Virus record (IMG/VR): IMGVR_UViG_2563366863_000004
Origin: a virus
Taxonomy: Duplodnaviria > Heunggongvirae > Uroviricota > Caudoviricetes
Length of the DNA: 18,817 nucleotides
Reading direction: 5' to 3' (one strand)
The stretch's first letter is position 1. The number at the start of each line of letters is the position of its first letter. The position numbers and the translations under genes are program-made. Below the pieces are notes generated by a model. The model did no database searches. It had not been told where the DNA came from and saw only the letters and a program-made list of their open reading frames with translations. This document shows positions 1,048 to 18,817 of the stretch, in pieces.

Positions 1048-1626
1048 ATGGCCATACAGGGTCTTGAGCAGGCCGTTGAAAACCTCAGCCGTATCAGCAA
1101 AACGGCGGTGCCCGGTGCCTCCGCAATGGCCATTAACCGCGTTGCTTCATCCGCGATATCGCAGTCTGCGTCACAGGTTGCCCGTGAGACAAAGGTACGC
1201 CGGAAACTGGTAAAGGAAAGGGCCAGGCTGAAAAGGGCCACGGTCAAAAATCCGCAGGCCAGAATCAAGGTTAACCGGGGGGATTTGCCCGTAATCAGGC
1301 TGGGTAACGCGCGGGTTGTCCTGTCCCGACGCAGGCGTCGTAAAAAGGGGCAGCGTTCATCCCTGAAAGGTGGCGACAGCGTGCTTGTGGTGGGAAACCG
1401 TCGTATTCCCGGCGCGTTTATTCAGCAACTGAAAAATGGCCGGTGGCATGTCATGCAGCGTGTGGCCGGGAAAAAACGTTACCCCATTGATGTGGTGAAA
1501 ATCCCGATGGCAGTGCCGCTGACCACGGCGTTTAAACAGAATATTGAGCGGATACGGCGTGAACGTCTTCCGAAAGAGCTGGGCTATGCGCTGCAGCATC
1601 AACTGAGGATGGTAATAAAGCGATGA
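1048..1626 (+). CDS. Z: Tail completion protein Z
   Basis: ATG at 1048 (MAIQGLEQAVENLSRISK...) gives 192 aa, the lambda gpZ length, and the sequence is close to lambda Z as I recall it. Confidence 0.9.
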   Translation: MAIQGLEQAVENLSRISKTAVPGASAMAINRVASSAISQSASQVARETKVRRKLVKERARLKRATVKNPQARIKVNRGDLPVIRLGNARVVLSRRRRRKKGQRSSLKGGDSVLVVGNRRIPGAFIQQLKNGRWHVMQRVAGKKRYPIDVVKIPMAVPLTTAFKQNIERIRRERLPKELGYALQHQLRMVIKR

Positions 1627-2018
1627 AACATACAGAACTCCGTGCAGCCGTACTGGATGCACTGGAAAAACATGACACCGGGGCGACGCTTTTTGATGGT
1701 CGCCCCGCTGTTTTTGATGAGGAGGATTTTCCGGCAGTTGCCGTTTATCTCACCGGCGCTGAATACACGGGCGAAGAGCTGGACAGCGATACCTGGCAGG
1801 CGGAGCTGCATATTGAAGTTTTCCTGCCTGCTCAGGTGCCGGATTCAGAGCTGGATTCGTGGATGGAGTCCCGGATTTATCCGGTGATGAGCGATGTCCC
1901 GGCACTGTCAGATTTGATCACCAGTATGGTGGCCAGTGGCTATGACTACCGGCGCGACGATGATGCGGGCCTGTGGAGTTCAGCCGATCTGACTTATGTC
2001 ATTACCTATGAAATGTGA
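1623..2018 (+). CDS. U: Tail terminator protein U
   Basis: 131 aa, starting [18 protein letters not shown]...; ATGA start/stop overlap with Z; lambda order and length. Confidence 0.9.
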
Positions 2019-2025
2019 GGACGAT

Positions 2026-2766
2026 ATGCCTGTACCAAATCCAGTAATGCCGGTGAAAGGGGCCGGGACCACACTGTGGGTTTATAAGGGGAACGGTGAC
2101 CCTTATGCGAACCCGCTTTCAGACGTTGACTGGTCGCGTCTGGCTAAAGTTAAAGACCTGACGCCCGGCGAACTGACCGCTGAGTCCTATGACGACAGCT
2201 ATCTCGATGATGAAGATGCGGACTGGACTGCGACCAGGCAGGGGCAGAAATCTGCCGGAGATACCAGCTTCACGCTGGCGTGGATGCCCGGAGAGCAGGG
2301 GCAGCAGGCGCTGCTGGCGTGGTTTAATGAAGGGGATACCCGTGCCTATAAAATCCGCTTCCCGAACGGCACGGTCGATGTGTTCCGCGGCTGGGTCAGC
2401 AGTATCGGTAAGGCGGTGACGGCGAAGGAAGTGATCACCCGCACGGTGAAAGTCACCAACGTGGGACGTCCGTCGATGGCAGAAGATCGCAGCACGGTGA
2501 CGGCGACAACCGGCATGACGGTGACACCCGCCAGTGCTTCCGTAGTGAAAGGGCAGAGCACTACGCTGACCGTGGCATTCCAGCCGGAGGGCGCAACCGA
2601 CAAGAGCTTCCGTGCGGTGTCTGCGGATAAAACAAAAGCCACCGTGTCGGTCAGCGGTATGACCATCACCGTGAACGGCGTTGCTGCAGGCAAGGTCAAC
2701 ATTCCGGTTGTATCCGGTAATGGTGAGTTTGCTGCGGTTGCAGAAATCACCGTCACCGCCAGTTAA
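2026..2766 (+). CDS. V: Major tail tube protein V with C-terminal Ig-like domain
   Basis: ATG at 2026 ([22 protein letters not shown]...) gives 246 aa, the lambda gpV length. The C-terminal ~90 aa ([47 protein letters not shown]...) look like a Big_2-type Ig-like domain. Confidence 0.9.
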
Positions 2767-2781
2767 TCCGGAGAGTCAGCG

Positions 2782-3204
2782 ATGTTCCTGAAAACCGAAT
2801 CATTTGAATATAACGGCGTGACCGTCACGCTTTCTGAACTGTCAGCCCTGCAGCGTATTGAGCATCTCGCCCTGATGAAACGGCAGGCAGAACAGGCGGA
2901 GTCAGACAGCAACCGGAAGTTTACTGTGGAAGACGCCATCAGAACCGGCGCGTTTCTGGTGGCGATGTCCCTGTGGCATAACCATCCGAAGAAGACGCAG
3001 ATGCCGTCCATGAATGAAGCCGTTAAACAGATTGAGCAGGAAGTGCTTACCACCTGGCCCACAGAGGCAATTTCTCATGCTGAAAACGTGGTGTACCGGC
3101 TGTCCGGTATGTATGAGTTTGTGGTGAATAATGCCCCCGAACAGGCAGAGGACGCCGGGCCTGCAGAGCCTGTTTCTGCGGGAAAGTGTTCGACGGTGAG
3201 CTGA
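2782..3204 (+). CDS. G: Tail assembly chaperone G
   Basis: 140 aa (MFLKTESFEYNGVTVTLSELSALQRIEHLALM...), the lambda gpG length, directly upstream of the tape measure gene. Confidence 0.9.
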   Translation: MFLKTESFEYNGVTVTLSELSALQRIEHLALMKRQAEQAESDSNRKFTVEDAIRTGAFLVAMSLWHNHPKKTQMPSMNEAVKQIEQEVLTTWPTEAISHAENVVYRLSGMYEFVVNNAPEQAEDAGPAEPVSAGKCSTVS

Positions 3205-3620
3205 GTTTTGCCCTGAAACTGGCGCGTGAGATGGGGCGACCCGACTGGCGCGCCATGCTTGCCGGGATGTCATCCACGGAGTATGCCGACTGGCACCGCT
3301 TTTACAGTACCCATTATTTTCATGATGTTCTGCTGGATATGCACTTTTCCGGGCTGACGTACACCGTGCTCAGCCTGTTTTTCAGCGATCCGGATATGCA
3401 TCCGCTGGATTTCAGTCTGCTGAACCGGTGTGAGGCTGACGAAGAGCCTGAAGGTGATGTGCTGATGCAGAAAGCGGCAGGGCTTGCCGGAGGTGTTCGT
3501 TTTGGTCCGGACGGGAATGAAGTTATCCCCGCCTCCCCGGATGTGGCGGACATGACGGAGGATGACGTAATGCTGATGACAGTATCAGAAGGGATCGCAG
3601 GAGGAGTCCGGTATGGCTGA
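2782..3620 (+). CDS. G-T: Tail assembly chaperone G-T fusion made by a programmed -1 ribosomal frameshift at 3180-3186
   Basis: The slippery heptamer G_GGA_AAG is in phase with the G frame (3181 is a G codon start). The -1 frame reads GGG AAA GTG TTC... = GKVFDGELSFALKLAREMGRPDW... and stays open to TGA at 3618-3620 (144-aa T portion, as in lambda). Confidence 0.85.
3180..3186 (+). other. -1 programmed frameshift slippery heptamer GGGAAAG (G to G-T)
   Basis: Sequence gcG GGA AAG tg at 3180-3186, 6 codons before the G stop; identical in motif and position to the lambda G/GT recoding site. Confidence 0.85.
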
Positions 3621-6174
3621 ACCGGTAGGCGATCTGGTCGTTGATTTAAGTCTGGATGCGGCCAGATTTGACGAGCAGATGGCCAGAGTCAGGCGTCATT
3701 TTTCCGGTACGGAAAGTGATGCGAAAAAAACAGCGGCAGTCGTTGAACAGTCAATGAACCGACAGGCGCTGGCTGCACAGAAAGCGGGGATTTCCGTCGG
3801 GCAGTATAAAGCCGCCATGCGTATGCTGCCTGCACAGTTCACCGACGTGGCCACGCAGCTTGCAGGCGGGCAAAGCCCGTGGCTGATCCTGCTGCAACAG
3901 GGCGGTCAGGTGAAGGACTCCTTCGGCGGGATGATCCCCATGTTCAGGGGGCTTGCCGGTGCGATCACCCTGCCGATGGTCGGGGCCACCTCGCTGGCGG
4001 TGGCGACCGGTGCGCTGGCGTATGCCTGGTATCAGGGTAACTCAACCCTGTCCGATTTCAACAAAACGCTGGTCCTTTCCGGTCATCAGTCGGGTCTGAC
4101 GGCAGATCGTATGCTGGTCCTGTCCAGAGCCGGGCAGGCGGCAGGGCTGACGTTTAACCAGACCAGCGAGTCACTCAGTGCACTGGTTAAGGCGGGGGTA
4201 AGCGGTGAGGCTCAGATTGTGTCCATCAGCCAGAGTGTGGCGCGTTTCTCCTCTGCATCCGGCGTGGAGGTGGACAAGGTCGCTGAAGCCTTCGGGAAGC
4301 TGACCACAGACCCGACGTCGGGGCTGACGGCGATGGCACGTCAGTTCCATAACGTGACGGCGGAGCAGATTGCGTATGTTGCTCAGTTGCAGCGTTCCGG
4401 CGATGAAACCGGGGCATTGCAGGCGGCGAACGAGGCCGCAACGAAAGGGTTTGATGACCAGACCCGCCGCCTGAAAGAGAACATGGGCACGCTGGAGACC
4501 TGGGCAGACAGGACAGCGCGGGCATTCAAATCCATGTGGGATGCGGTGCTGGATATTGGTCGTCCTGATACCGCGCAGGAGATGCTGATTAAGGCAGAGG
4601 CTGCGTTTAAGAAAGCAGACGACATCTGGAATCTGCGCAAGGATGATTATTTTGTTAACGATGAAGCGCGGGCGCGTTACTGGGATGATCGTGAAAAGGC
4701 CCGTCTTGCGCTTGAAGCCGCCCGAAAGAAGGCTGAGCAGCAGACTCAACAGGACAAAAATGCGCAGCAGCAGAGCGATACCGAAGCGTCACGGCTGAAA
4801 TATACCGAAGAGGCGCAGAAGGCTTACGAACGGCTGCAGACGCCGCTGGAGAAATATACCGCCCGTCAGGAAGAACTGAACAAGGCACTGAAAGACGGGA
4901 AAATCCTGCAGGCGGATTACAACACGCTGATGGCGGCGGCGAAAAAGGATTATGAAGCGACGCTGAAAAAGCCGAAACAGTCCGGCGTGAAGGTGTCTGC
5001 GGGCGATCGTCAGGAAGACAGTGCTCATGCTGCCCTGCTGACGCTTCAGGCAGAACTCCGGACGCTGGAGAAGCATGCCGGAGCGAATGAGAAAATCAGC
5101 CAGCAGCGCCGGGATTTGTGGAAGGCGGAGAGTCAGTTCGCGGTACTGGAGGAGGCGGCGCAACGTCGCCAGCTGTCTGCACAGGAGAAATCCCTGCTGG
5201 CGCATAAAGATGAGACGCTGGAGTACAAACGCCAGCTGGCTGCACTTGGCGACAAGGTTACGTATCAGGAGCGCCTGAACGCGCTGGCGCAGCAGGCGGA
5301 TAAATTCGCACAGCAGCAACGGGCAAAACGGGCCGCCATTGATGCGAAAAGCCGGGGGCTGACTGACCGGCAGGCAGAACGGGAAGCCACGGAACAGCGC
5401 CTGAAGGAACAGTATGGCGATAATCCACTGGCGCTGAATAACGTCATGTCAGAGCAGAAAAAGACCTGGGCGGCTGAAGACCTGCTTCGCGGGAACTGGA
5501 TGGCAGGCCTCAGGTCCGGCTGGAGTGAGTGGGAAGAGAGTGCCACGGACAGTATGTCGCAGGTAAAAAGTGCTGCCACGCAGACCTTTGATGGTATTGC
5601 ACAGAATATGGCGGCGATGCTGACCGGCAGTGAGCAGAACTGGCGCAGCTTCACCCGCTCCGTGCTGTCCATGATGACAGAAATTCTGCTTAAGCAGGCA
5701 ATGGTGGGGATTGTCGGGAGTATCGGCAGCGCTATTGGCGGGGCTGTTGGTGGTGGCGCATCCGCGTCAGGCGGTACAGCCATTCAGGCAGCTGCGGCGA
5801 AATTCCATTTTGCGACCGGAGGATTTACGGGAACCGGCGGCAAATATGAGCCAGCGGGGATTGTCCACCGCGGGGAGTTTGTCTTCACGAAGGAGGCAAC
5901 CAGCCGGATTGGTGTCGGGAACCTGTACCGCCTGATGCGGGGCTATGCGGAAGGGGGGTATGTGGGTGCTGCCGGAAGTCCGGCGCAGATGCGGCGGGCC
6001 GAAGGCATTAATTTTAATCAGAACAATCACGTGGTGATTCAGAACGACGGTATCAACGGACAGGCCGGGCCGCAGCTGATGAAAGCGGTGTATGAGATGG
6101 CCCGTAAAGGTGCGCAGGATGAGCTCCGGCTGCAGTTGCGTGATGGCGGTCTGTTATCGGGGAGCGGGCGATGA
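3613..6174 (+). CDS. H: Tail tape measure protein H
   Basis: 853 aa, the same length as lambda gpH. N-terminus MAEPVGDLVVDLSLDAARFDEQMARVRRHF, a long coiled-coil Ala/Gln/Lys-rich centre and a Gly-rich C-terminal region; overlaps the T stop. Confidence 0.95.
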   Translation: MAEPVGDLVVDLSLDAARFDEQMARVRRHFSGTESDAKKTAAVVEQSMNRQALAAQKAGISVGQYKAAMRMLPAQFTDVATQLAGGQSPWLILLQQGGQVKDSFGGMIPMFRGLAGAITLPMVGATSLAVATGALAYAWYQGNSTLSDFNKTLVLSGHQSGLTADRMLVLSRAGQAAGLTFNQTSESLSALVKAGVSGEAQIVSISQSVARFSSASGVEVDKVAEAFGKLTTDPTSGLTAMARQFHNVTAEQIAYVAQLQRSGDETGALQAANEAATKGFDDQTRRLKENMGTLETWADRTARAFKSMWDAVLDIGRPDTAQEMLIKAEAAFKKADDIWNLRKDDYFVNDEARARYWDDREKARLALEAARKKAEQQTQQDKNAQQQSDTEASRLKYTEEAQKAYERLQTPLEKYTARQEELNKALKDGKILQADYNTLMAAAKKDYEATLKKPKQSGVKVSAGDRQEDSAHAALLTLQAELRTLEKHAGANEKISQQRRDLWKAESQFAVLEEAAQRRQLSAQEKSLLAHKDETLEYKRQLAALGDKVTYQERLNALAQQADKFAQQQRAKRAAIDAKSRGLTDRQAEREATEQRLKEQYGDNPLALNNVMSEQKKTWAAEDLLRGNWMAGLRSGWSEWEESATDSMSQVKSAATQTFDGIAQNMAAMLTGSEQNWRSFTRSVLSMMTEILLKQAMVGIVGSIGSAIGGAVGGGASASGGTAIQAAAAKFHFATGGFTGTGGKYEPAGIVHRGEFVFTKEATSRIGVGNLYRLMRGYAEGGYVGAAGSPAQMRRAEGINFNQNNHVVIQNDGINGQAGPQLMKAVYEMARKGAQDELRLQLRDGGLLSGSGR

Positions 6175-6500
6175 AAACATTTCGCTGGAAAGTGAAGCCG
6201 GATATGGAGGTGAACTCGCAGCCATCGGTGCGTGAAGTGCGTTTTGGTGACGGGTACTCACAGCGTATGGCGGCAGGGCTGAATGCTGACCTGAAAACAT
6301 ACAGGGTGACGCTTTCCGTGACCCGGGAGGAGGCCCGGCATCTGGAAGCGTTCCTGGCAGAGCACGGTGGCTGGAAGGCATTTTTGTGGAAGCCACCCTA
6401 TGCATACCGGCAGATAAAGGTGACCTGTGCCGGGTGGTCTGCGCGGGTCGGGATGTTGCGCGTTGAGTTCAGCGCGGAGTTTAAGCAGGTGGTGAACTGA
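6171..6500 (+). CDS. M: Minor tail (tail tip) protein M
   Basis: 109 aa (MKTFRWKVKPDMEVNSQPSVREVRFGDGYSQR...), the lambda gpM length; ATGA overlap with the H stop. Confidence 0.9.
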   Translation: MKTFRWKVKPDMEVNSQPSVREVRFGDGYSQRMAAGLNADLKTYRVTLSVTREEARHLEAFLAEHGGWKAFLWKPPYAYRQIKVTCAGWSARVGMLRVEFSAEFKQVVN

Positions 6501-7198
6501 TGCAGGATATTCACGAAGAAAGTCTGAACGAGTCGGTTAAGTCAGAGCAGTCACCGCGGGTGGTACTCTGGGAAATCGACCTGACGGTGCAGGGCGGTGA
6601 GCGGTATTTTTTCTGCAATGAGCTGAATGAAAAAGGGGAGCCGGTGACCTGGCAGGGGCGTGAATATCAGGCGTACCCGATTGAGGGGAGTGGCTTTGAG
6701 ATGAGCGGGAAGGGCAGCAGTGCCAGACCGTCGCTGACGGTGTCCAATCTGTTCGGTCTGGTCACCGGGATGGCGGAAGACCTGCAGAGTCTGGTGGGGG
6801 CCACGGTGGTCCGCCGCCGGGTGTATGCCCGTTTTCTGGATGCGGTGAATTTCGTTGCGGGCAATCCGGAGGCCGACCCGGAGCAGGAGCTGACGGACCG
6901 GTGGGTGGTGGAGCAGATGTCAGCGCTGACAGCCATGACGGCCTCGTTTGTGCTGGCCACACCGACCGAGACGGACGGGGCGCTGTTTCCCGGTCGTATC
7001 ATGCTGGCGAACACCTGTATGTGGACCTACCGCTCTGATGAGTGTGGTTACACGGGCGGGGCTGTGGCGGATGAGTTCGATAAACCCACCACGGATATCC
7101 GTAAGGACAGATGCAGCAAGTGCATGCGCGGGTGTGAACTGCGCAGGAATGTCGGCAATTTTGGCGGTTTCCTTTCCATTAATAAACTTTCGCAGTAA
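6500..7198 (+). CDS. L: Minor tail (tail tip) protein L, with C-terminal Cys cluster
   Basis: 232 aa (MQDIHEESLNESVKSEQSPRVVLWEIDLT...), the lambda gpL length. C-terminal cysteines (CMWTYRSDECGYTGG...RCSKCMRGC) are consistent with the Fe-S-binding tip protein; TGATG overlap with M. Confidence 0.9.
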   Translation: MQDIHEESLNESVKSEQSPRVVLWEIDLTVQGGERYFFCNELNEKGEPVTWQGREYQAYPIEGSGFEMSGKGSSARPSLTVSNLFGLVTGMAEDLQSLVGATVVRRRVYARFLDAVNFVAGNPEADPEQELTDRWVVEQMSALTAMTASFVLATPTETDGALFPGRIMLANTCMWTYRSDECGYTGGAVADEFDKPTTDIRKDRCSKCMRGCELRRNVGNFGGFLSINKLSQ

Positions 7199-13370: not shown

Positions 13371-13729
13371 ATTGGTGGAAAAGTATGACAGTAAAAATTT
13401 CTGGCGTGCTTAAAGATGGCACAGGAAAACCAGTACAGAACTGCACCATTGTGCTGAAGGCCAGACGAACCAGCAGCACGGTGGTGGTGAACACGGTGGC
13501 CTCTGAAAATCCGGATGAAGCCGGACGTTACAGCATGGATGTTGAGCATGGTCAGTACAGCGTCACCCTGCTGGTTGAAGGTTTTCCGCCTTCACATGCC
13601 GGGACCATTACCGTCTATGAAGGTTCCAGACCAGGTACGCTGAATGATTTTCTCGGTGCCATGACGGAGGATGATGTCCGACCGGAGGCACTGCGCCGCT
13701 TTGAGCAGATGGTGGAAGAGGTGTCACGT

Positions 13730-14760
13730 AACGCCTCCGCGGTTGCACAGAATACGGCAGCCGCGAAAAAATCAGCCAGCGATGCCAGTGCATCAGCCAG
13801 CGAGGCGGCAACTCATGCAACCGATGCTGCAGCCTCAGCACGTGCCGCCAGCACGTCAGCCGGACAGGCCGCGTCGTCGGCTCAGTCAGCGTCTTCCAGC
13901 GCAGGAACGGCATCGACAAAGGCCCGTGAAGCAGCAAAAAGTGCTGCTGCTGCAGAGTCATCAAAAAGCGCGGCAGCTACCAGCGCCAGTGCCGCGAAAA
14001 CGTCAGAAACGAATGCCGCAGCATCACAAAAATCGGCAGCCACTTCTGCATCCACAGCGACCACGAAGGCGTCAGAAGCTGCCACCTCGGCACGGGGTGC
14101 GGCGGCCTCAAAAGAGGCAGCGAAATCTTCAGAAACGAATGCATCATCAAGTGCCAGTAGTGCAGCTTCCTCGGCAACGGCGGCAGGAAATTCCGCGAAG
14201 GCGGCAAAAACGTCCGAGACGAACGCTAAGTCTTCTGAAACAGCAGCGGGACAGAGCGCCTCAGCTGCGGCAGGTTCAAAAACAGCGGCTGCATTATCTG
14301 CCAGTGCCGCGTCAACAAGTGCCGGGCAGGCCTCAGCCAGTGCCACCGCCGCCGGAAAATCGGCAGAAAGCGCCGCATCATCCGCTTCAACAGCCACAAC
14401 GAAAGCTGGCAAAGCCACTGAGCAAGCCACTGCAGCAGCGAGGTCTGCTTCTGCAGCAAAAACCTCTGAAACAAATGCAAAGACTTCAGCAGACAATGCT
14501 GCTTCCTCTAAGGCGGCAGCCGCATCGTCAGCCAGTTCAGCGGCGTCATCGGCATCATCTGCGTCTGCTTCAAAAGATGAGGCGACCAGACAAGCGTCAG
14601 CAGCGAAAGGTAGTGCCACGACAGCAACAACGAAAGCATCAGAGGCGGCAGGCAGTGCGACGGCTGCATCTCAGAGCAAAGTTGCTGCTGAATCCGCGGC
14701 AACGCGCGCCGAGACAGCAGCAAAACGGGCAGAGGATATTGCATCCGCCGTGGCGCTGGA
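13730..14760 (+). repeat. Degenerate tandem Ala/Ser/Thr-rich repeats inside stf (approximate bounds)
   Basis: Recurring ...SAAKTSETNA... / ...KSSETNASSSASSAASSA... units, with recurring nucleotide cores such as aaaacgtcagaaacgaatgc, aaatcttcagaaacgaatgc, aaaacgtccgagacgaacgc and aaaacctctgaaacaaatgc. They create long spurious ORFs in the other frames. Confidence 0.5.
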
Positions 14761-14932
14761 GGATGCGAGCACGACGAAAAAGGGGATAGTACAGCTCAGC
14801 AGTGCAACAAACAGCACCAGTGAAAAGCTGGCGGCAACGCCAAAGGCAGTTAAAACTGTTAAAGATAGTTCAGTTCAAAAAACTGGCGACACAATGGGAG
14901 GGCAGTTAAAAATCAGCACGATAAATGCTCTT

Positions 14933-14940
14933 CGAATATT
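14933..14940. repeat. Target-site duplication (left copy) flanking IS1: cgaatatt
   Basis: The 8 bp immediately before the IS1 end (14933-14940) are identical to the 8 bp immediately after it (15709-15716). Confidence 0.75.
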
Positions 14941-14955
14941 GGTAATGACTCCAAC

Positions 14956-15459
14956 TTACTGATAGTGTTTTATGTTCAGATAATGCCCGATGACTTTGTC
15001 ATGCAGCTCCACCGATTTTGAGAACGACAGTGACTTCCGTCCCAGCCTTGCCAGATGTTGTCTCAGATTCAGGTTATGTCGCTCAATGCGCTGAGTGTAA
15101 CGCTTGCTGATTACGTGCAGCTTTCCCTTCAGGCGGGATTCATACAGCGGCCAGCCATCCGTCATCCATACCACGACCTCAAAGGCCGACAGCAGGCTCA
15201 GAAGACGCTCCAGTGTGGCCAGAGTGCGTTCACCGAAGACGTGCGCCACAACCGTCCTCCGTATCCTGTCATACGCGTAAAACAGCCAGCGCTGGCGCGA
15301 TTTAGCCCCGACATAGCCCCACTGTTCGCCCATTTCCGCGCAGACGATGACGTCACTGCCCGGCTGTATGCGCGAGGTTACCGACTGCGGCCTGAGTTTT
15401 TTAAGTGACGTAAAATCGTGTTGAGGCCAACGCCCATAATGCGGGCGGTTGCCCGGCAT
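14956..15459 (-). CDS. insB: IS1 InsB (transposase catalytic part; expressed as InsAB' by -1 frameshift)
   Basis: 167-aa [40 protein letters not shown]... The TTAAAAAACTC frameshift motif is on the minus strand (complement of 15394-15404), just upstream of the insA stop. Confidence 0.88.
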
Positions 15460-15653
15460 CCAACACCATTCATGGCCATATCAATGATTTTCTGGTGTGT
15501 ACCGGGTTGAGAAGCGGTGTAAGTGAACTGCAGTTGCCATGTTTTACGGCAGTGAGAGCAGAGATAGCGCTGATGTCCGGCAGTACTTTTACCGTTACGC
15601 ACCACGCCTTCAGTAGCTGAGCAGGAGGGACAACTGATGGAGATGGAAGCCAC
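15378..15653 (-). CDS. insA: IS1 InsA (DNA-binding regulator / N-terminal part of transposase)
   Basis: 91 aa, [91 protein letters not shown], essentially canonical IS1 InsA with its Zn-finger cysteines. Confidence 0.92.
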
Positions 15654-15708
15654 GGGAGCACCTCAAAAACACCATCATACACTAAATCAGTAAGTTGGCA
15701 CCATTACC

Positions 15709-15716
15709 CGAATATT
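15709..15716. repeat. Target-site duplication (right copy) flanking IS1: cgaatatt
   Basis: Identical to 14933-14940. Confidence 0.75.
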
Positions 15717-17187
15717 CAACCAAGCCTTTGGCCTTATTTTTAGGCGTTCCGAAGATCATCTTCATCTTATTCCGACTAATGAAGGGGAGGGGGAAAATGG
15801 AGACATCGGTTCATTAAGACCATTCTCTATAAACTTAAGATCAGGGTTGGTGTCCATCGGTAATGGACTAAAAGTTGGTGGTAGTGTTACTGGTAATTTG
15901 ACCGGAAACGCAGATACTGCGACCAAGATCAAGACAGCACGTAAGATTGGGGGCGTGGCATTTGATGGATCGGCAGATATCAACTTGCCTGGAGTCAACG
16001 CTACCGGTAATCAAAACACTACAGGTAATGCTGCGACCGCCACGAAACTTCAGGCAGCCAGAACGATTAACGGTGTGTCATTTGATGGTAGTGCAAATAT
16101 CACATTGACCCCTTCAAATATTGGGGCATTGGCATTAACTGGAGGGACTCTTTCAGGTGGTTTAACTGCTGCTGGTGAGGTTATTTCAAGGTCAGCAAAT
16201 GGTCTGCGTATTGCCTATGGCAACTATGGATTCTTTATCCGAAATGATGGATCAAACACATATTTTATGTTGACAGATTCGGGTAACAGTCTTGGTACGC
16301 ACAATAGCTTAAGGCCGTTTATAATTAGTAACCATACTGGCAATGTTACAATTGCAACTAAATTAAACGCGAGTGGTGGTATCACTGGATCTTTATCGGG
16401 TAATGCAAGCACAGCAACCAAATTGCAAACTGCAAGGACAATTAACGGCGTAAAATTTGACGGCTCGGCAAATATTGAAGCGTTTCCGCCAGGTGTTCCG
16501 CTGCCGTGGCCATCAGATACACCACCTGCAGGTTATGCGATCATGCAGGGGCAGACGTTTGATAAGGCAGCATATCCGAAACTGGCTATTGCCTATCCTT
16601 CAGGTGTTATTCCAGATATGCGCGGCTGGACAATCAAGGGCAAACCCGCCAGTGGCCGGGCCGTATTGTCTCAGGAACAGGACGGCATAAAATCGCACAC
16701 CCACAGCGCCAGCGCATCCAGTACGGATTTGGGGACGAAAACCACATCGTCGTTTGATTACGGCACTAAATCCACGAATAACACCGGGGCGCATACGCAC
16801 AGTCTGAGTGGCTCTACGGGGTCTGCCGGTGTTCATACTCATGGTAATGGTATTCGTTGGCCAGGAGGCGGCGGTTCTGCGTTAGCATTTTATGATGGCG
16901 GTGGGTTCACTTATGTCCAGAATTCACAGTATCAAGTAAGCCCGGAGACTTCTTCCTATAGATCGTATTATCAACGTATTCAGACACAGTCAGCAGGTGC
17001 TCATACCCACTCGCTGTCTGGAACTGCAGCAAGTTCTGGCGCACATGCACATACTGTAGGTATTGGTGCGCATACGCACTCCGTTGCGATTGGTTCACAT
17101 GGACACACCATCACCGTTAACGCTGCGGGTAACGCGGAAAACACCGTCAAAAACATCGCATTTAACTATATTGTGAGGCTTGCATAA
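15717..17187 (+). pseudogene. stf: Side tail fibre protein Stf, 3' portion (distal, receptor-binding part with His-rich repeats)
   Basis: Frame is open from the IS1 junction to TAA at 17185-17187 and is in phase with the 5' part once IS1 plus one 8-bp repeat copy are removed. Product ...[35 protein letters not shown]... ends with repeated HxH motifs ([35 protein letters not shown]). Confidence 0.8.
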
Positions 17188-17771
17188 TGGCATTCAGAAT
17201 GAGTGAACAAGCACGGACCATAAAAATTTATAATCTGCTGGCCGGAACTAATGAATTTATTGGTGAAGGTGACGCATATATTCCGCCTCATACAGGTCTG
17301 CCAGCAAACAGTACCGATATTGCACCACCAGATATTCCTGCTGGCTTTGTGGCTGTTTTCAACAGTGATGAGGCATCGTGGCATCTCGTTGAAGACCATC
17401 GGGGGAAAACGGTTTATGACGTAGCGTCAGGGGACGAGTTATTTATTTCTGAACTCGGTCCGTTACCGGAAAATGTTACCTGGTTATCGCCGGAAGGGGA
17501 GTTTCAGAAGTGGAACGGCACAGCCTGGGTGAAGGATACGGAAGCAGAAAAACTGTTCCGGATCCGGGAGGCGGAAGAAACAAAAAACAACCTGATGCAG
17601 GTAGCCAGTGAGCATATTGCGCCGCTTCAGGATGCTGCAGATCTGGAAATTGCAACGGAGGAAGAAACCTCATTGCTGGAAGCCTGGAAAAAGTATCGGG
17701 TGTTGCTGAACCGTGTTGATACATCAACTGCACCTGATATTGAGTGGCCTACGAACCCTGTCAGGGAGTAA
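17187..17771 (+). CDS. tfa: Tail fibre assembly protein Tfa
   Basis: 194 aa, [54 protein letters not shown]..., matching lambda Tfa as I recall it; start overlaps the stf stop by 1 nt (ATAATG). Confidence 0.9.
17607..17771. repeat. Direct repeat copy 1: tfa 3' end
   Basis: Encodes [55 protein letters not shown] diverged copy (mostly synonymous or conservative changes) lies at 18656-18817. Confidence 0.7.
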
Positions 17772-17785
17772 TCATTGGGATTATG

Positions 17786-17818
17786 CCGCAGCACGTCTTA
17801 AGCAAGAACGTGCTGCGG
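17786..17818 (+). terminator. 11-bp hairpin downstream of tfa (weak terminator candidate)
   Basis: CCGCAGCACGT (17786-17796) / ACGTGCTGCGG (17808-17818) with an 11-nt loop. The T-tract (tatttttt, 17828-17835) is displaced about 9 nt from the stem, so this is weak. Confidence 0.3.
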
Positions 17819-17825
17819 TTGGATG

Positions 17826-18494
17826 CTATTTTTTCCCTGAAGCGGAAAACATTACTACAGTACCTTGAACCTTGGTTTTAACATTCTCGAAATGCTCTGA
17901 GAGTATATGTGTTAAGCCTTCTTCGGAATCTTTTGTGTTTGAAAAGATGCCTTTCTGATTGTAAATGCGCATCAGTTTTTGACCGAAGCTATTGTGCACA
18001 ACTCCATCGCCAAGAATTGTGGCTCCGTATAGAGTTCCATCGTCAGTTAAGGCCTGCGCCGCATTGCGTATTACACAGCTTTTTGTAGATATATTTCCAG
18101 GCAGGCAGTGAAGAAGGTAAAACATGGAAATGGAATCAAATTGACCATGTAACGCCGCGGGATAAGGTTCAAAAACATCATGGCTAATTTTATGTTTAAT
18201 TTTTGATTCCCCAGCCCTTGTAGATGCCGCGTTCAGGCTAGCTTCGTTCAAATCCATTAAAGATATCAGACTACTCTCAGGTACGTGAGTAAGGTAAAAC
18301 CCAGTTCCAACACCAATATCCAGATGGTTGTTACCTACATGTTCCAGAAAGTGTGGAAGAAGGTGTTCCTTTGTAGGACATCCCCATGCAAGCCGATTTG
18401 ATACTCCCAAAACCCACCAGTCATAAAGCTTTAGGGTAAGTGGTGTGTAAATTTTAGCCCCATCATCTGTGTTTTTTTTCATTGATTTCACCAT
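17826..18494 (-). CDS. Class I SAM-dependent methyltransferase (moron, unknown substrate)
   Basis: 222-aa ORF on the opposite strand from the tail genes. Motif-I-like LDIGVGTGFY fits a Rossmann-fold AdoMet methyltransferase. Region is visibly AT-richer than the tail genes. An alternative start at 18482 (MKKNTDD...) has a better GGTGA SD. The arrangement resembles the tfaD-ybcY-tfaX layout I recall from E. coli K-12 DLP12; this is from memory and unverified. Confidence 0.75.
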   Translation of the reverse strand: MVKSMKKNTDDGAKIYTPLTLKLYDWWVLGVSNRLAWGCPTKEHLLPHFLEHVGNNHLDIGVGTGFYLTHVPESSLISLMDLNEASLNAASTRAGESKIKHKISHDVFEPYPAALHGQFDSISMFYLLHCLPGNISTKSCVIRNAAQALTDDGTLYGATILGDGVVHNSFGQKLMRIYNQKGIFSNTKDSEEGLTHILSEHFENVKTKVQGTVVMFSASGKK

Positions 18495-18550
18495 GTTATA
18501 GTTTTATTTGTGAATTAAATCAATTATGGCGATGAATTACAAGGGGTTAA

Positions 18551-18817
18551 ATGCTGCCGCAGCATAGCGATATTGAAATAGCCTGGTATGCTTCGATACA
18601 GCAGGAGCCGAATGACTGGAAGACCGTCACCACACAGTTCCACATCCAGGAATTCAGTGAGTATATTGCGCCACTGCAGGATGCTGTAGATCTGGAAATC
18701 GCAACGGCGGAAGAAAGATCGTTGCTGGAGGCATGGAATAAATATCGGGTATTGTTGAATCGTGTTGATACATCAACTGCACCTGATATTGAGTGGCCGA
18801 CTTCACCTGCAGAGTAA
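18551..18817 (+). CDS. Short Tfa-like protein or tfa gene fragment (Tfa C-terminal domain with an unrelated 35-aa N-terminus)
   Basis: 88-aa ORF with a strong AAGGGG SD. Its C-terminal 53 aa ([53 protein letters not shown]) are near-identical to the Tfa C-terminus; the N-terminal [35 protein letters not shown] has no counterpart in Tfa. Stop is at the window end. Confidence 0.6.
18656..18817. repeat. Direct repeat copy 2: tfa 3' end
   Basis: See copy 1 at 17607-17771; the two copies bracket the minus-strand methyltransferase gene. Confidence 0.7.

Follow-up and report, generated by a model that had tools for sequence, protein, structure and literature searches.

Why should a methyltransferase gene stand behind the last tail-fibre gene of a lambdoid prophage, opposed to the late operon and framed by two copies of the end of that gene? 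The question is raised by an 18,817-nucleotide stretch of caudoviral DNA (the window), and part of the answer is already known: the locus is the well-known, uncharacterised ybcY of E. coli lambdoid prophages, which is very common and holds no surprise for a specialist in phages or in E. coli. The original prediction had pointed to a likeness to tfaD-ybcY-tfaX of prophage DLP12 in E. coli K-12, and this was borne out: the genes are arranged in the same way on the same strands, positions 17333-18797 of the window share 96.7% nucleotide identity with that locus, and the promoter spacer is the same in both. The two loci differ in their state, since in K-12 a frameshift has made ybcY a pseudogene and tfaX carries an in-frame stop, whereas in the window ybcY is intact and the tfaX equivalent (tfa') reaches its natural end; DLP12 is cryptic, while the window copy belongs to a lambda-like prophage with a full set of tail genes. 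A literature search for ybcY, tfaX, the RefSeq accession and STM1638 returned no functional study. We consider it probable that the locus is a moron, whose small-molecule or lipid methyltransferase serves the lysogen and which is flanked by scars of tfa; it would then be a clean example of host-benefit cargo that lambdoid phages carry where the tail-fibre module ends.

RefSeq annotates the methyltransferase gene on the minus strand at 17826-18494, with a start at 18494 and a product of 222 aa. This upstream ATG is not conserved in the aligned loci, while all 35 of the 35 aligned homologues begin at the second ATG (18482), where M5 is invariant, so that judging from the alignment the latter is almost certainly the start used (17826..18482, 218 aa); the length of 222 codons given in the original prediction thus holds for the annotated reading frame but probably not for the protein. 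The match to PHROG 2132 covers positions 1-218 of 218 (E 3.9e-157) and, together with the tfa-ybcY-tfa' synteny, places the protein in the YbcY family. Methyltransf_12 scores 37.5 bits against a curated Pfam cut-off of 30, and matches to Methyltransf_23, Methyltransf_25 and Methyltransf_11 likewise exceed their curated cut-offs. The AlphaFold model (pLDDT 90.5, with residues 1-14 disordered) contains the seven-stranded alpha/beta Rossmann fold. Motif I, (D/E)xGxGxG, is present as LDIGVGTG (residues 58-65 in the 222-aa numbering), D81 is the acidic residue expected at the end of strand 2 for the SAM ribose, and an HD pair follows at 105-106 (D106); all are invariant in an alignment of 36 sequences, which holds 59 invariant residues altogether. 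The protein has a pI of 6.9 and no membrane segment. By its profiles and its modelled structure, including the Foldseek matches described below, it is a class I Rossmann SAM-dependent methyltransferase, as had been predicted.

The left flank is straightforward. The tail-fibre assembly chaperone gene tfa (17187..17771, plus strand, 194 aa) closes the late operon within the window; it is 92.6% identical to lambda tfa, and its product matches Caudo_TAP (E 1.9e-44). The end of this gene (17595..17771, plus strand) is the left direct repeat and encodes the conserved C-terminal domain of Tfa, which has a role in trimerisation (PMC9608196). Positions 17595-17752 and 18644-18801 align without a gap over 158 nt at 87% identity (BLAST E 3e-50), and the direct repeats that had been predicted at 17607-17771 and 18656-18817 correspond to the portion of this duplication that lies in frame. 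Among the 49 aligned codons, 12 differ synonymously and 5 by replacement, which agrees with the earlier description of the differences as mostly synonymous or conservative and indicates that both were functional tfa genes while they diverged; one codon is missing before the stop (WPTNPVRE* on the left, WPTSPAE* on the right).

The right flank is a composite. The 3'-end remnant of a different tfa allele (tfa', 18638..18817, plus strand) is preceded by a spacer unrelated to tfa (18545..18637, plus strand), from which a chimeric reading frame equivalent to tfaX (18551-18817, 88 codons) takes its ATG (18551) and its initial 29 codons; the last 57 codons of this frame repeat the tfa 3' end in frame. 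The spacer occurs in phage Ayreon without the tfa part, the homology ending at 18637, and its product is weakly similar to the N-terminus of PHROG 3893. Caudo_TAP matches only residues 31-87 of the chimeric product, corresponding to profile positions 75-131 of 131, and the complete two-domain chaperone, with a variable fibre-binding N-domain and a conserved C-domain, is not encoded; RefSeq labels tfa' a pseudogene with its N-terminus missing. Comparison of eight loci found tfa' broken by nonsense mutation, frameshift or 3' replacement in six, and intact only in the window and in the identical copy of ATCC 25922. The chimeric frame has a nonsense codon in both K-12 and STEC309, is frameshifted in 2G7b, has lost its 3' part to other sequence elsewhere, and is absent from 20Y000092. 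The right repeat is a decaying scar, joined to unrelated sequence at 18637/18638, and not a working gene. Both repeats also match the candidate small RNA 'IS009' of Rfam (RF02111; 225 bits at 17530-17728 and 108.8 bits at 18574-18777); we rejected an RNA gene because these matches cover the coding 3' end of tfa and the substitutions there have a protein-coding pattern.

How, then, did the repeats come to frame the gene? The original prediction had proposed a cassette inserted or exchanged by recombination between tail-fibre modules, and mosaic breakpoints do indeed cluster here. Homology to lambda ends at 17820 and that to SPF_0923 at 17825, after which other genes follow and the methyltransferase is absent; Turner and O157 share the methyltransferase module from 17786 and 17780, respectively, with breakpoints at a hairpin; and 2G7b, Ayreon and strain 20Y000092 have breakpoints within the left repeat. 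The hairpin (17776..17834, plus strand; main stem 17785-17819, followed by T6 at 17829-17834; RNA fold -28.5 kcal/mol, z -4.85) is the junction sequence common to the tfa module and the methyltransferase module, and a similar hairpin is present again in the b region of lambda. These comparisons show the tfa 3' ends to be breakpoints of tail-fibre module exchange. The conserved C-terminal part of tfa would offer a common stretch in which different fibre modules recombine, acting as a swap point that leaves scars, and the flanking repeats would be a by-product of this swapping. What does not stand is the whole inter-repeat segment as the cassette: the mobile unit is instead terminator, gene and promoter (about 17780-18544), and the right copy, as the dead remnant of an earlier tfa allele, need not be the site that brought the gene in.

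That the two tfa ends might instead form a switch or working pair, supplying alternative chaperone ends or an 88-aa TfaX-like product acting against fibre assembly in other phages, we regard as extremely unlikely, even though the 88-codon frame has an AGGGG ribosome-binding site and a PHROG of its own (2341) and retains the whole trimerisation domain, phage Turner carries an invertase near tfa, and in one screen the kanamycin MIC rose three-fold when tfaX of K-12 was over-expressed. The invertible tail-fibre segments (Mu G, P1 C and e14 P, with Gin, Cin and Pin) resemble the locus in having duplicated fibre or tfa ends beside host-range genes, but there the repeats are inverted, an invertase is present and the alternative gene ends are functional, whereas the window has direct repeats and one dead copy, with no inverted repeat found in 16800-18817 and no invertase-sized reading frame after tfa within the window; the locus is not a segment of this type. 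The frequent breakage of tfa' described above also speaks against a working pair, as does the lack of any exact recombinant of the two copies: a synthetic tfa/tfa' hybrid found a best match of 96.9% in 5426 genomes, which leaves a recent excision through recombination of the repeats without evidence.

Returning to the moron reading, the gene appears to carry its own signals. The moron concept goes back to Hendrix and Juhala, with lom and bor of lambda and ompT and appY of the DLP12 region as examples; like other lambdoid morons, ybcY is an extra gene with its own promoter, a hairpin and deviant GC content, situated between the late genes and the attachment site, although the known morons of the region are mostly envelope proteins and YbcY is a cytoplasmic enzyme. 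It is present or absent at one site among close relatives, and it has a predicted promoter and terminator of its own together with a deviant base composition. We envisage a self-contained cargo gene at the start of what is the b region in lambda, made up of the 3' hairpin, the 218-aa coding sequence, a Shine-Dalgarno sequence and a sigma-70 promoter. The AT-rich segment noticed earlier is real: from 17800 to 18600 GC lies at 0.37-0.445, while stf and tfa have 0.49-0.55, and for the methyltransferase stretch as a whole it is 40-42%, compared with about 50% in the flanks. On the plus strand the hairpin reads as a predicted intrinsic terminator of the late transcript; there is no T-run on the methyltransferase strand, so that a terminating role for the methyltransferase transcript is only putative.

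Upstream of the gene, a Shine-Dalgarno GGTGA (18488..18492, minus strand) lies 5 nt ahead of the conserved ATG and is kept as GGTGA or GGAGA in five of seven other aligned loci. The predicted sigma-70 promoter (18514..18542, minus strand) consists of TTGTAA (18542-18537), a 17-nt spacer and TG-n-TTTAAT (18522-18514); an overlapping alternative, TTGATT (18523-18518) and TATAAC (18500-18495), again 17 nt apart on the minus strand, is that of the K-12 ybcY listing. Six of eight aligned loci preserve the two hexamers at their distance of 17 nt, with a variable sequence in between, and nucleotide homology to chromosomal loci stops at 18523-18544, just upstream of the -35 hexamer. A generic scan for promoters and terminators found 2 promoter-like sites against 2.6 expected and is uninformative, so the promoter model rests on conservation across genera, which extends, for promoter and ribosome-binding site alike, to the chromosomal homologues in Enterobacter, Citrobacter and Salmonella. 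The ybcY/tfaX spacer of K-12 is bound in vitro by RNA polymerase holoenzyme, but also by H-NS (PMC3946193). Expression from the prophage, which had been thought likely, is thus only partly supported, by the conserved promoter and the binding of polymerase, while the binding of H-NS suggests that transcription may be shut off in laboratory culture.

Does the gene do anything for its carrier? Of 5426 complete genomes of E. coli, 3832 carry it, the search finding 4877 genomic copies; plaque-forming lambdoid phages have it as well, and its dN/dS of 0.11-0.16 shows purifying selection. The 90%-identity cluster of the exact protein counts 6589 members, whereas truncated sequences number a few hundred, and the frameshifted K-12 copy is an exception, not a sign that the gene is a pseudogene in most homologous loci. 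Intact copies persist in prophage remnants, one with ompT beside tRNA-Arg and one in O157, and in such almost erased prophages the methyltransferase remains whole while the tfa remnant decays through nonsense mutation, frameshift and truncation. A functionless hitch-hiker, captured by chance and kept merely through its recombination-prone location, might have been suspected from the K-12 pseudogene, the H-NS on the promoter region and a 659-bp deletion that removes the gene from phage Ayreon, which continues to grow on K-12. The selection on the gene, its integrity beside a decaying tfa' and the keeping of its promoter and ribosome-binding site across genera make this very improbable; the K-12 and Ayreon cases suggest rather that any benefit is conditional.

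The substrate must be approached through relatives. Genes for those at 56-68% identity stand alone, on the chromosome or in islands, in Enterobacter, Citrobacter, Salmonella, Erwinia and beyond, and their surroundings are unrelated to phage tails. The best structures found by Foldseek are PmtA, JHAMT and PfPMT, headed by the bacterial phosphatidylethanolamine N-methyltransferase 8ys9 (E 9e-12, TM 0.61-0.63, 15-17% identity) with phosphoethanolamine methyltransferases next, and all of the nearest structural relatives methylate small molecules or lipids; sequence and profile searches of the PDB gave JHAMT and UbiG at best (E 1e-3 to 6e-6). The solved small-molecule class I enzymes (PmtA 8ys9, JHAMT 7ec0, PfPMT, UbiG, Coq5, DhpI, Rv0560c and TmtA) share with YbcY the Rossmann core, a lid of N-terminal helices and a His that follows strand 4 (LLHCLPG in YbcY), but at only 11-21% identity, with no one enzyme standing out, and the substrate-binding residues YDWWVL..SN..AW.C and YN.KGIFSN are specific to the YbcY family. 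Taken together, the standalone relatives, the 59 invariant residues and the structural relatives lead us to infer a general enterobacterial substrate: the soluble enzyme would methylate a metabolite, xenobiotic or lipid head group found in any enterobacterial cell. Among seven homologue contexts no common partner gene was found. A nearby alpha/beta-hydrolase in phages, Erwinia and Enterobacter belongs to a different family each time and was taken as chance. Ten longer relatives have N-terminal extensions only, without Pfam domains; an RCC1 fusion, found in addition, is probably a gene-calling artefact. The names of distant relatives are generic labels only.

A DNA, rRNA or tRNA methyltransferase, shielding phage DNA from restriction or retuning host translation, is a very unlikely alternative on these grounds, as the top matches in sequence and fold are small-molecule enzymes and the close homologues are lone chromosomal genes. 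A regular-expression search found neither the (D/N/S)PP(Y/F/W) nor the PCQ motif, the core fold and lid fill all 218 aa and leave no target-recognition domain, the pI is neutral, the gene has its own promoter against the late operon, and the single match in the PADLOC library of defence systems is not significant. Narrowing the small-molecule reading to a PmtA-like phospholipid N-methyltransferase, which would convert phosphatidylethanolamine to its methylated forms and alter the membrane of the lysogen, draws on the leading Foldseek matches, the similar size (about 210 aa) and a Trp-rich N-terminal helix; the NCBIfam match to PmtA is weak (NF045882, 15.7 bits against a cut-off of 390), nothing in NCBIfam exceeds its threshold, CpaM, RquA and PmtA lie at 16-18 bits against cut-offs of 175-390, and we hold so specific an identity to be very unlikely.

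The broader reading of a small-molecule or lipid methyltransferase leaves room for a role in the lysogen, for instance in detoxification or in modification of the envelope or of metabolites, and would not involve virion assembly or DNA modification. Rv0560c and TmtA methylate antimicrobial heterocycles and PmtA phosphatidylethanolamine, and compounds of these kinds are the example substrates of a tentative and rather doubtful extension, in which YbcY is an enzyme of lysogenic conversion that H-NS keeps silent in laboratory culture and that, once expressed, methylates a widespread small molecule or lipid head group and thereby confers a conditional fitness or resistance trait. Such a role would explain why the gene is kept intact in 71% of the complete genomes of E. 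coli, even where the prophage has been nearly erased. The practical value of the locus lies in this orphan enzyme, which some seven in ten complete E. coli genomes carry, which is under purifying selection and which outlasts the decay of its prophage alongside ompT. The identical cassette of the reference strain ATCC 25922 is located about 230 bp from potB, as opposed to the argU site of DLP12, and makes a knockout study easy to set up.

The ORFs of the window are arranged as in the late (tail) part of a lambda-like prophage, and the matching region of ATCC 25922 carries annotations for tape measure, J, lom, stf and tfa. As the original prediction had it, a minus-strand methyltransferase ORF (17826-18494) lies behind the tail-fibre assembly chaperone gene tfa (17187-17771, plus strand; 194 aa, Caudo_TAP E 1.9e-44). 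This ORF exceeds the curated Pfam cut-offs of four generic methyltransferase domains; beyond it comes an 88-codon plus-strand ORF (18551-18817) whose Caudo_TAP match is confined to its last 57 residues. The AT-rich character of the segment was confirmed (GC 0.37-0.445 across 17800-18600 versus 0.49-0.55 in the flanks), as were the direct repeats encoding the C-terminal part of Tfa: a repeat search aligned 17595-17752 with 18644-18801 at 87% identity without gaps (BLAST E 3e-50). The differences are mostly synonymous, as had been noticed, with 12 synonymous and 5 replacement changes over 49 in-frame codons, and one codon was lost immediately 5' of the stop between the two copies. An in-situ duplication would not give this bias, which shows instead that the copies diverged within working tfa genes prior to their juxtaposition. 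Rfam lists a candidate small RNA, RF02111 ('IS009'), whose model hits both tfa 3' repeats: the left one with 225 bits (17530-17728), exceeding its gathering score of 117, and the right one with 108.8 bits (18574-18777); as the matched DNA is protein-coding with synonymous-biased substitutions, an RNA gene was rejected, and RF02111 appears to be a model of the conserved tfa 3' end.

Over 17333-18797 the locus shares 96.7% identity with the tfaD-ybcY-tfaX genes of MG1655 DLP12, a resemblance already drawn in the original prediction; MG1655 ybcY carries a pseudogene annotation. ATCC 25922 is identical over all 1718 bases of 17100-18817, and there the cassette is the final annotated item before potB, which lies about 230 bp away. 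The methyltransferase gene, counting any match of at least 95% identity, occurs in 3832 of 5426 complete E. coli genomes, with up to four copies per genome. At a query coverage of at least 80%, the junction of gene 5' end, promoter and the second tfa remnant (tfa', 18638-18817) was found in 3440 of these genomes, that of tfa 3' end, hairpin and gene 3' end in 1943, and the entire tfa-gene-tfa' stretch in 1496. The gene is also present in the lambdoid phages PhiR26_1, PhiR29, PhiR30, 2G7b, ev243, Turner and Kati. The 90%-identity cluster headed by the exact protein holds 6589 database sequences, and truncated forms number a few hundred. By computational criteria the locus belongs to PHROG 2132 (the YbcY family) and is a moron, a self-contained prophage cargo gene. 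Public annotation already covers all structural features of the locus, whose K-12 counterpart was named decades ago; what we add is a corrected start codon, a predicted promoter conserved across genera, a breakpoint map of the mosaic boundaries, the Ayreon deletion of the gene, and the contrast between a maintained gene and a decaying tfa remnant.

Homology comparison across phages and prophages places breaks in the left repeat, at the hairpin that follows tfa, and at 18637/18638, bearing out the proposed recombination of tail-fibre modules at tfa 3' ends. Within the left repeat, 2G7b breaks at 17651, Ayreon at 17626 and 20Y000092 at 17655, and the fibre genes upstream of these points differ or are missing, so that the conserved tfa 3' end is a recurrent crossover zone in fibre-module exchange. 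This fits the domain plan of Tfa, as outlined in PMC9608196 (citing North et al. 2019), with fibre binding by a variable N-domain and trimerisation by a conserved helical domain at the C-terminus. Homology with lambda runs through tfa and the hairpin to 17820, and that with the Salmonella phage SPF_0923 to 17825, past which they carry on with ea47 or sitABCD. Phage Turner, in which an invertase and 1.7 kb separate tfa from the methyltransferase gene, and the O157:H7 prophage remnant, which is without any tfa, begin their homology at 17786 or 17780, so that the hairpin is the overlap of the tfa and methyltransferase modules. On the right side, Ayreon and the window share 18521-18637 and then diverge, which puts the joint of the tfa remnant with the unrelated sequence supplying the 5' part of the 88-codon ORF at 18637/18638; among cassette-bearing loci homology ends at 18775 or 18797-18798. 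The locus classed neither as an invertible segment nor as a complete Tfa.

The second methionine of the annotated ORF is invariant and is the start in 35 of 35 aligned homologues. PHROG 2132 (218 positions) matches residues 1-218 of this shorter form (E 3.9e-157), residues 1-14 are disordered in the AlphaFold model of the 222-aa form, and conservation in the aligned loci does not extend to the upstream ATG at 18494. In an alignment of upstream DNA from the window and homologous loci of Enterobacter, Citrobacter, Salmonella and others, GGTGA or GGAGA precedes the ATG by 5 nt, TTTAAT preceded by TG-n is invariant, and a TTG(T/C)NA hexamer lies precisely 17 nt upstream of it. Conserved hexamers around a variable spacer are what a genuine sigma-70 promoter should show, and we predict one here; nucleotide homology with these unrelated loci stops at 18523-18544, just beyond the -35 hexamer. 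The K-12 ybcY/tfaX spacer was bound by RpoD holoenzyme in genomic SELEX, and likewise by H-NS, and an overlapping promoter, TTGATT-17-TATAAC, was proposed there (Shimada et al., PMC3946193). The hairpin at the gene 3' end has its main stem at 17785-17819 and an extended stem at 17776-17828 (-28.5 kcal/mol, z -4.85). A T6 run comes next on the plus strand, none being present on the methyltransferase strand, and the element reads as a predicted terminator of the late transcript.

Is the gene maintained, and for what? Its dN/dS against homologues is 0.11 (Salmonella), 0.16 (Citrobacter) and 0.12 (Enterobacter), and it is annotated intact in STEC309, the O157 remnant and strain 20Y000092. The DLP12 remnant of the latter (1543-4525 of its locus), beside tRNA-Arg, has been reduced to a tfa fragment, a broken integrase and two intact genes, the methyltransferase gene and ompT; here the cargo genes have outlived the phage. 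The tfa' ORF, in contrast, is interrupted by an in-frame stop in both K-12 and STEC309 and by a 7-nt frameshift in 2G7b, has its 3' end replaced beyond 18775 in PhiR26_1, Turner and O157, and is absent from 20Y000092, which indicates that the methyltransferase gene is maintained while the tfa remnant is not. In Ayreon (MF807953) 659 bp are deleted, reaching from around codon 207 of the gene back across its -10 element, which shows that growth on K-12 does not need the gene. What Ayreon retains, at 2769-3117 of its locus, is the region upstream of -10, the last 12 methyltransferase codons, the hairpin and a tfa 3' remnant of 32 codons; it has no tfa gene, and an intramolecular-chaperone-type domain forms the end of its side fibre.

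The main question is the substrate of this very widespread orphan enzyme. The best Foldseek matches are the PE N-methyltransferase 8ys9, JHAMT and PfPMT (TM ~0.6, 15-21% identity), sequence searches get no further than JHAMT and UbiG, and NCBIfam scores fall far under the cut-offs. The protein (pI 6.9) has no membrane segment and no DNA-methylase catalytic motif, and it classed neither as a DNA methylase nor as PmtA. Searched with a profile, 1.84 billion representatives yielded a compact family of 414 clusters at E <= 1e-30, almost all of ~220 aa, reaching Francisella, marine metagenomes and a lichen fungus; its members bear generic labels only and no informative domain fusion. Homologues of 56-68% identity are lone genes in unrelated places, adjoining cybB, ydcF and hrpA in Salmonella (56% identical, 6001-6663 of its locus), a branched-chain-type ABC transporter operon in Enterobacter, a carboxylesterase in Erwinia, and sodC with phage remnants in Citrobacter; others in Salmonella and E. 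coli lie on contigs with PerC-like genes and, variously, autotransporter, adhesin or transposase genes. Since 59 residues are invariant across aligned homologues, including the aromatic N-terminal lid Y..YDWWVL..SN..AW.C and YN.KGIFSN, the substrate would have to be something that all these cells contain, which speaks against a phage protein or one particular DNA site. We settle on an enzyme that would methylate a small molecule or lipid on behalf of the lysogen.

By synteny, the Salmonella homologue occupies the STM1638 position, adjoining the small RNA rydC, which activates cfa, another SAM-dependent lipid methyltransferase; this adjacency may be coincidence, yet is a possible lead to a membrane-related function. 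Besides the promoter hexamers, several genera conserve the motif ATTG(A/T)TTTAATTCAC upstream of their methyltransferase genes (window 18510-18544, minus strand); read on the plus strand it gives TGTGAATTAAATCAAT, a partial CRP-like half-site arrangement and possibly a regulator binding site. The lambda b region contains the tfa-terminator hairpin once more, between ea47 and ea31 (5275-5316 of the lambda segment compared; 86% identity to window 17785-17825), which suggests a repeated boundary element of b-region modules. RefSeq also has a 45-aa 'hypothetical protein', WP_001309429.1 (17744-17881, plus strand), which runs across the tfa stop and the hairpin into the 3' end of the methyltransferase gene and is most probably spurious. 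Beyond the cassette, PhiR26_1, 2G7b and Turner have a minus-strand gene of ~465-495 aa, annotated as alpha/beta-hydrolase in 2G7b, then an ompT homologue and the integrase, whereas DLP12 has appY at the hydrolase position. Finally, a complete 768-bp IS1 (14941-15708), flanked by the 8-bp target duplication CGAATATT at 14933-14940 and 15709-15716, splits the side-tail-fibre gene stf into 13385-14962 and 15847-17187, so that the window prophage, much like laboratory lambda, would be without functional side fibres; stf of ATCC 25922 is uninterrupted (3027 bp).
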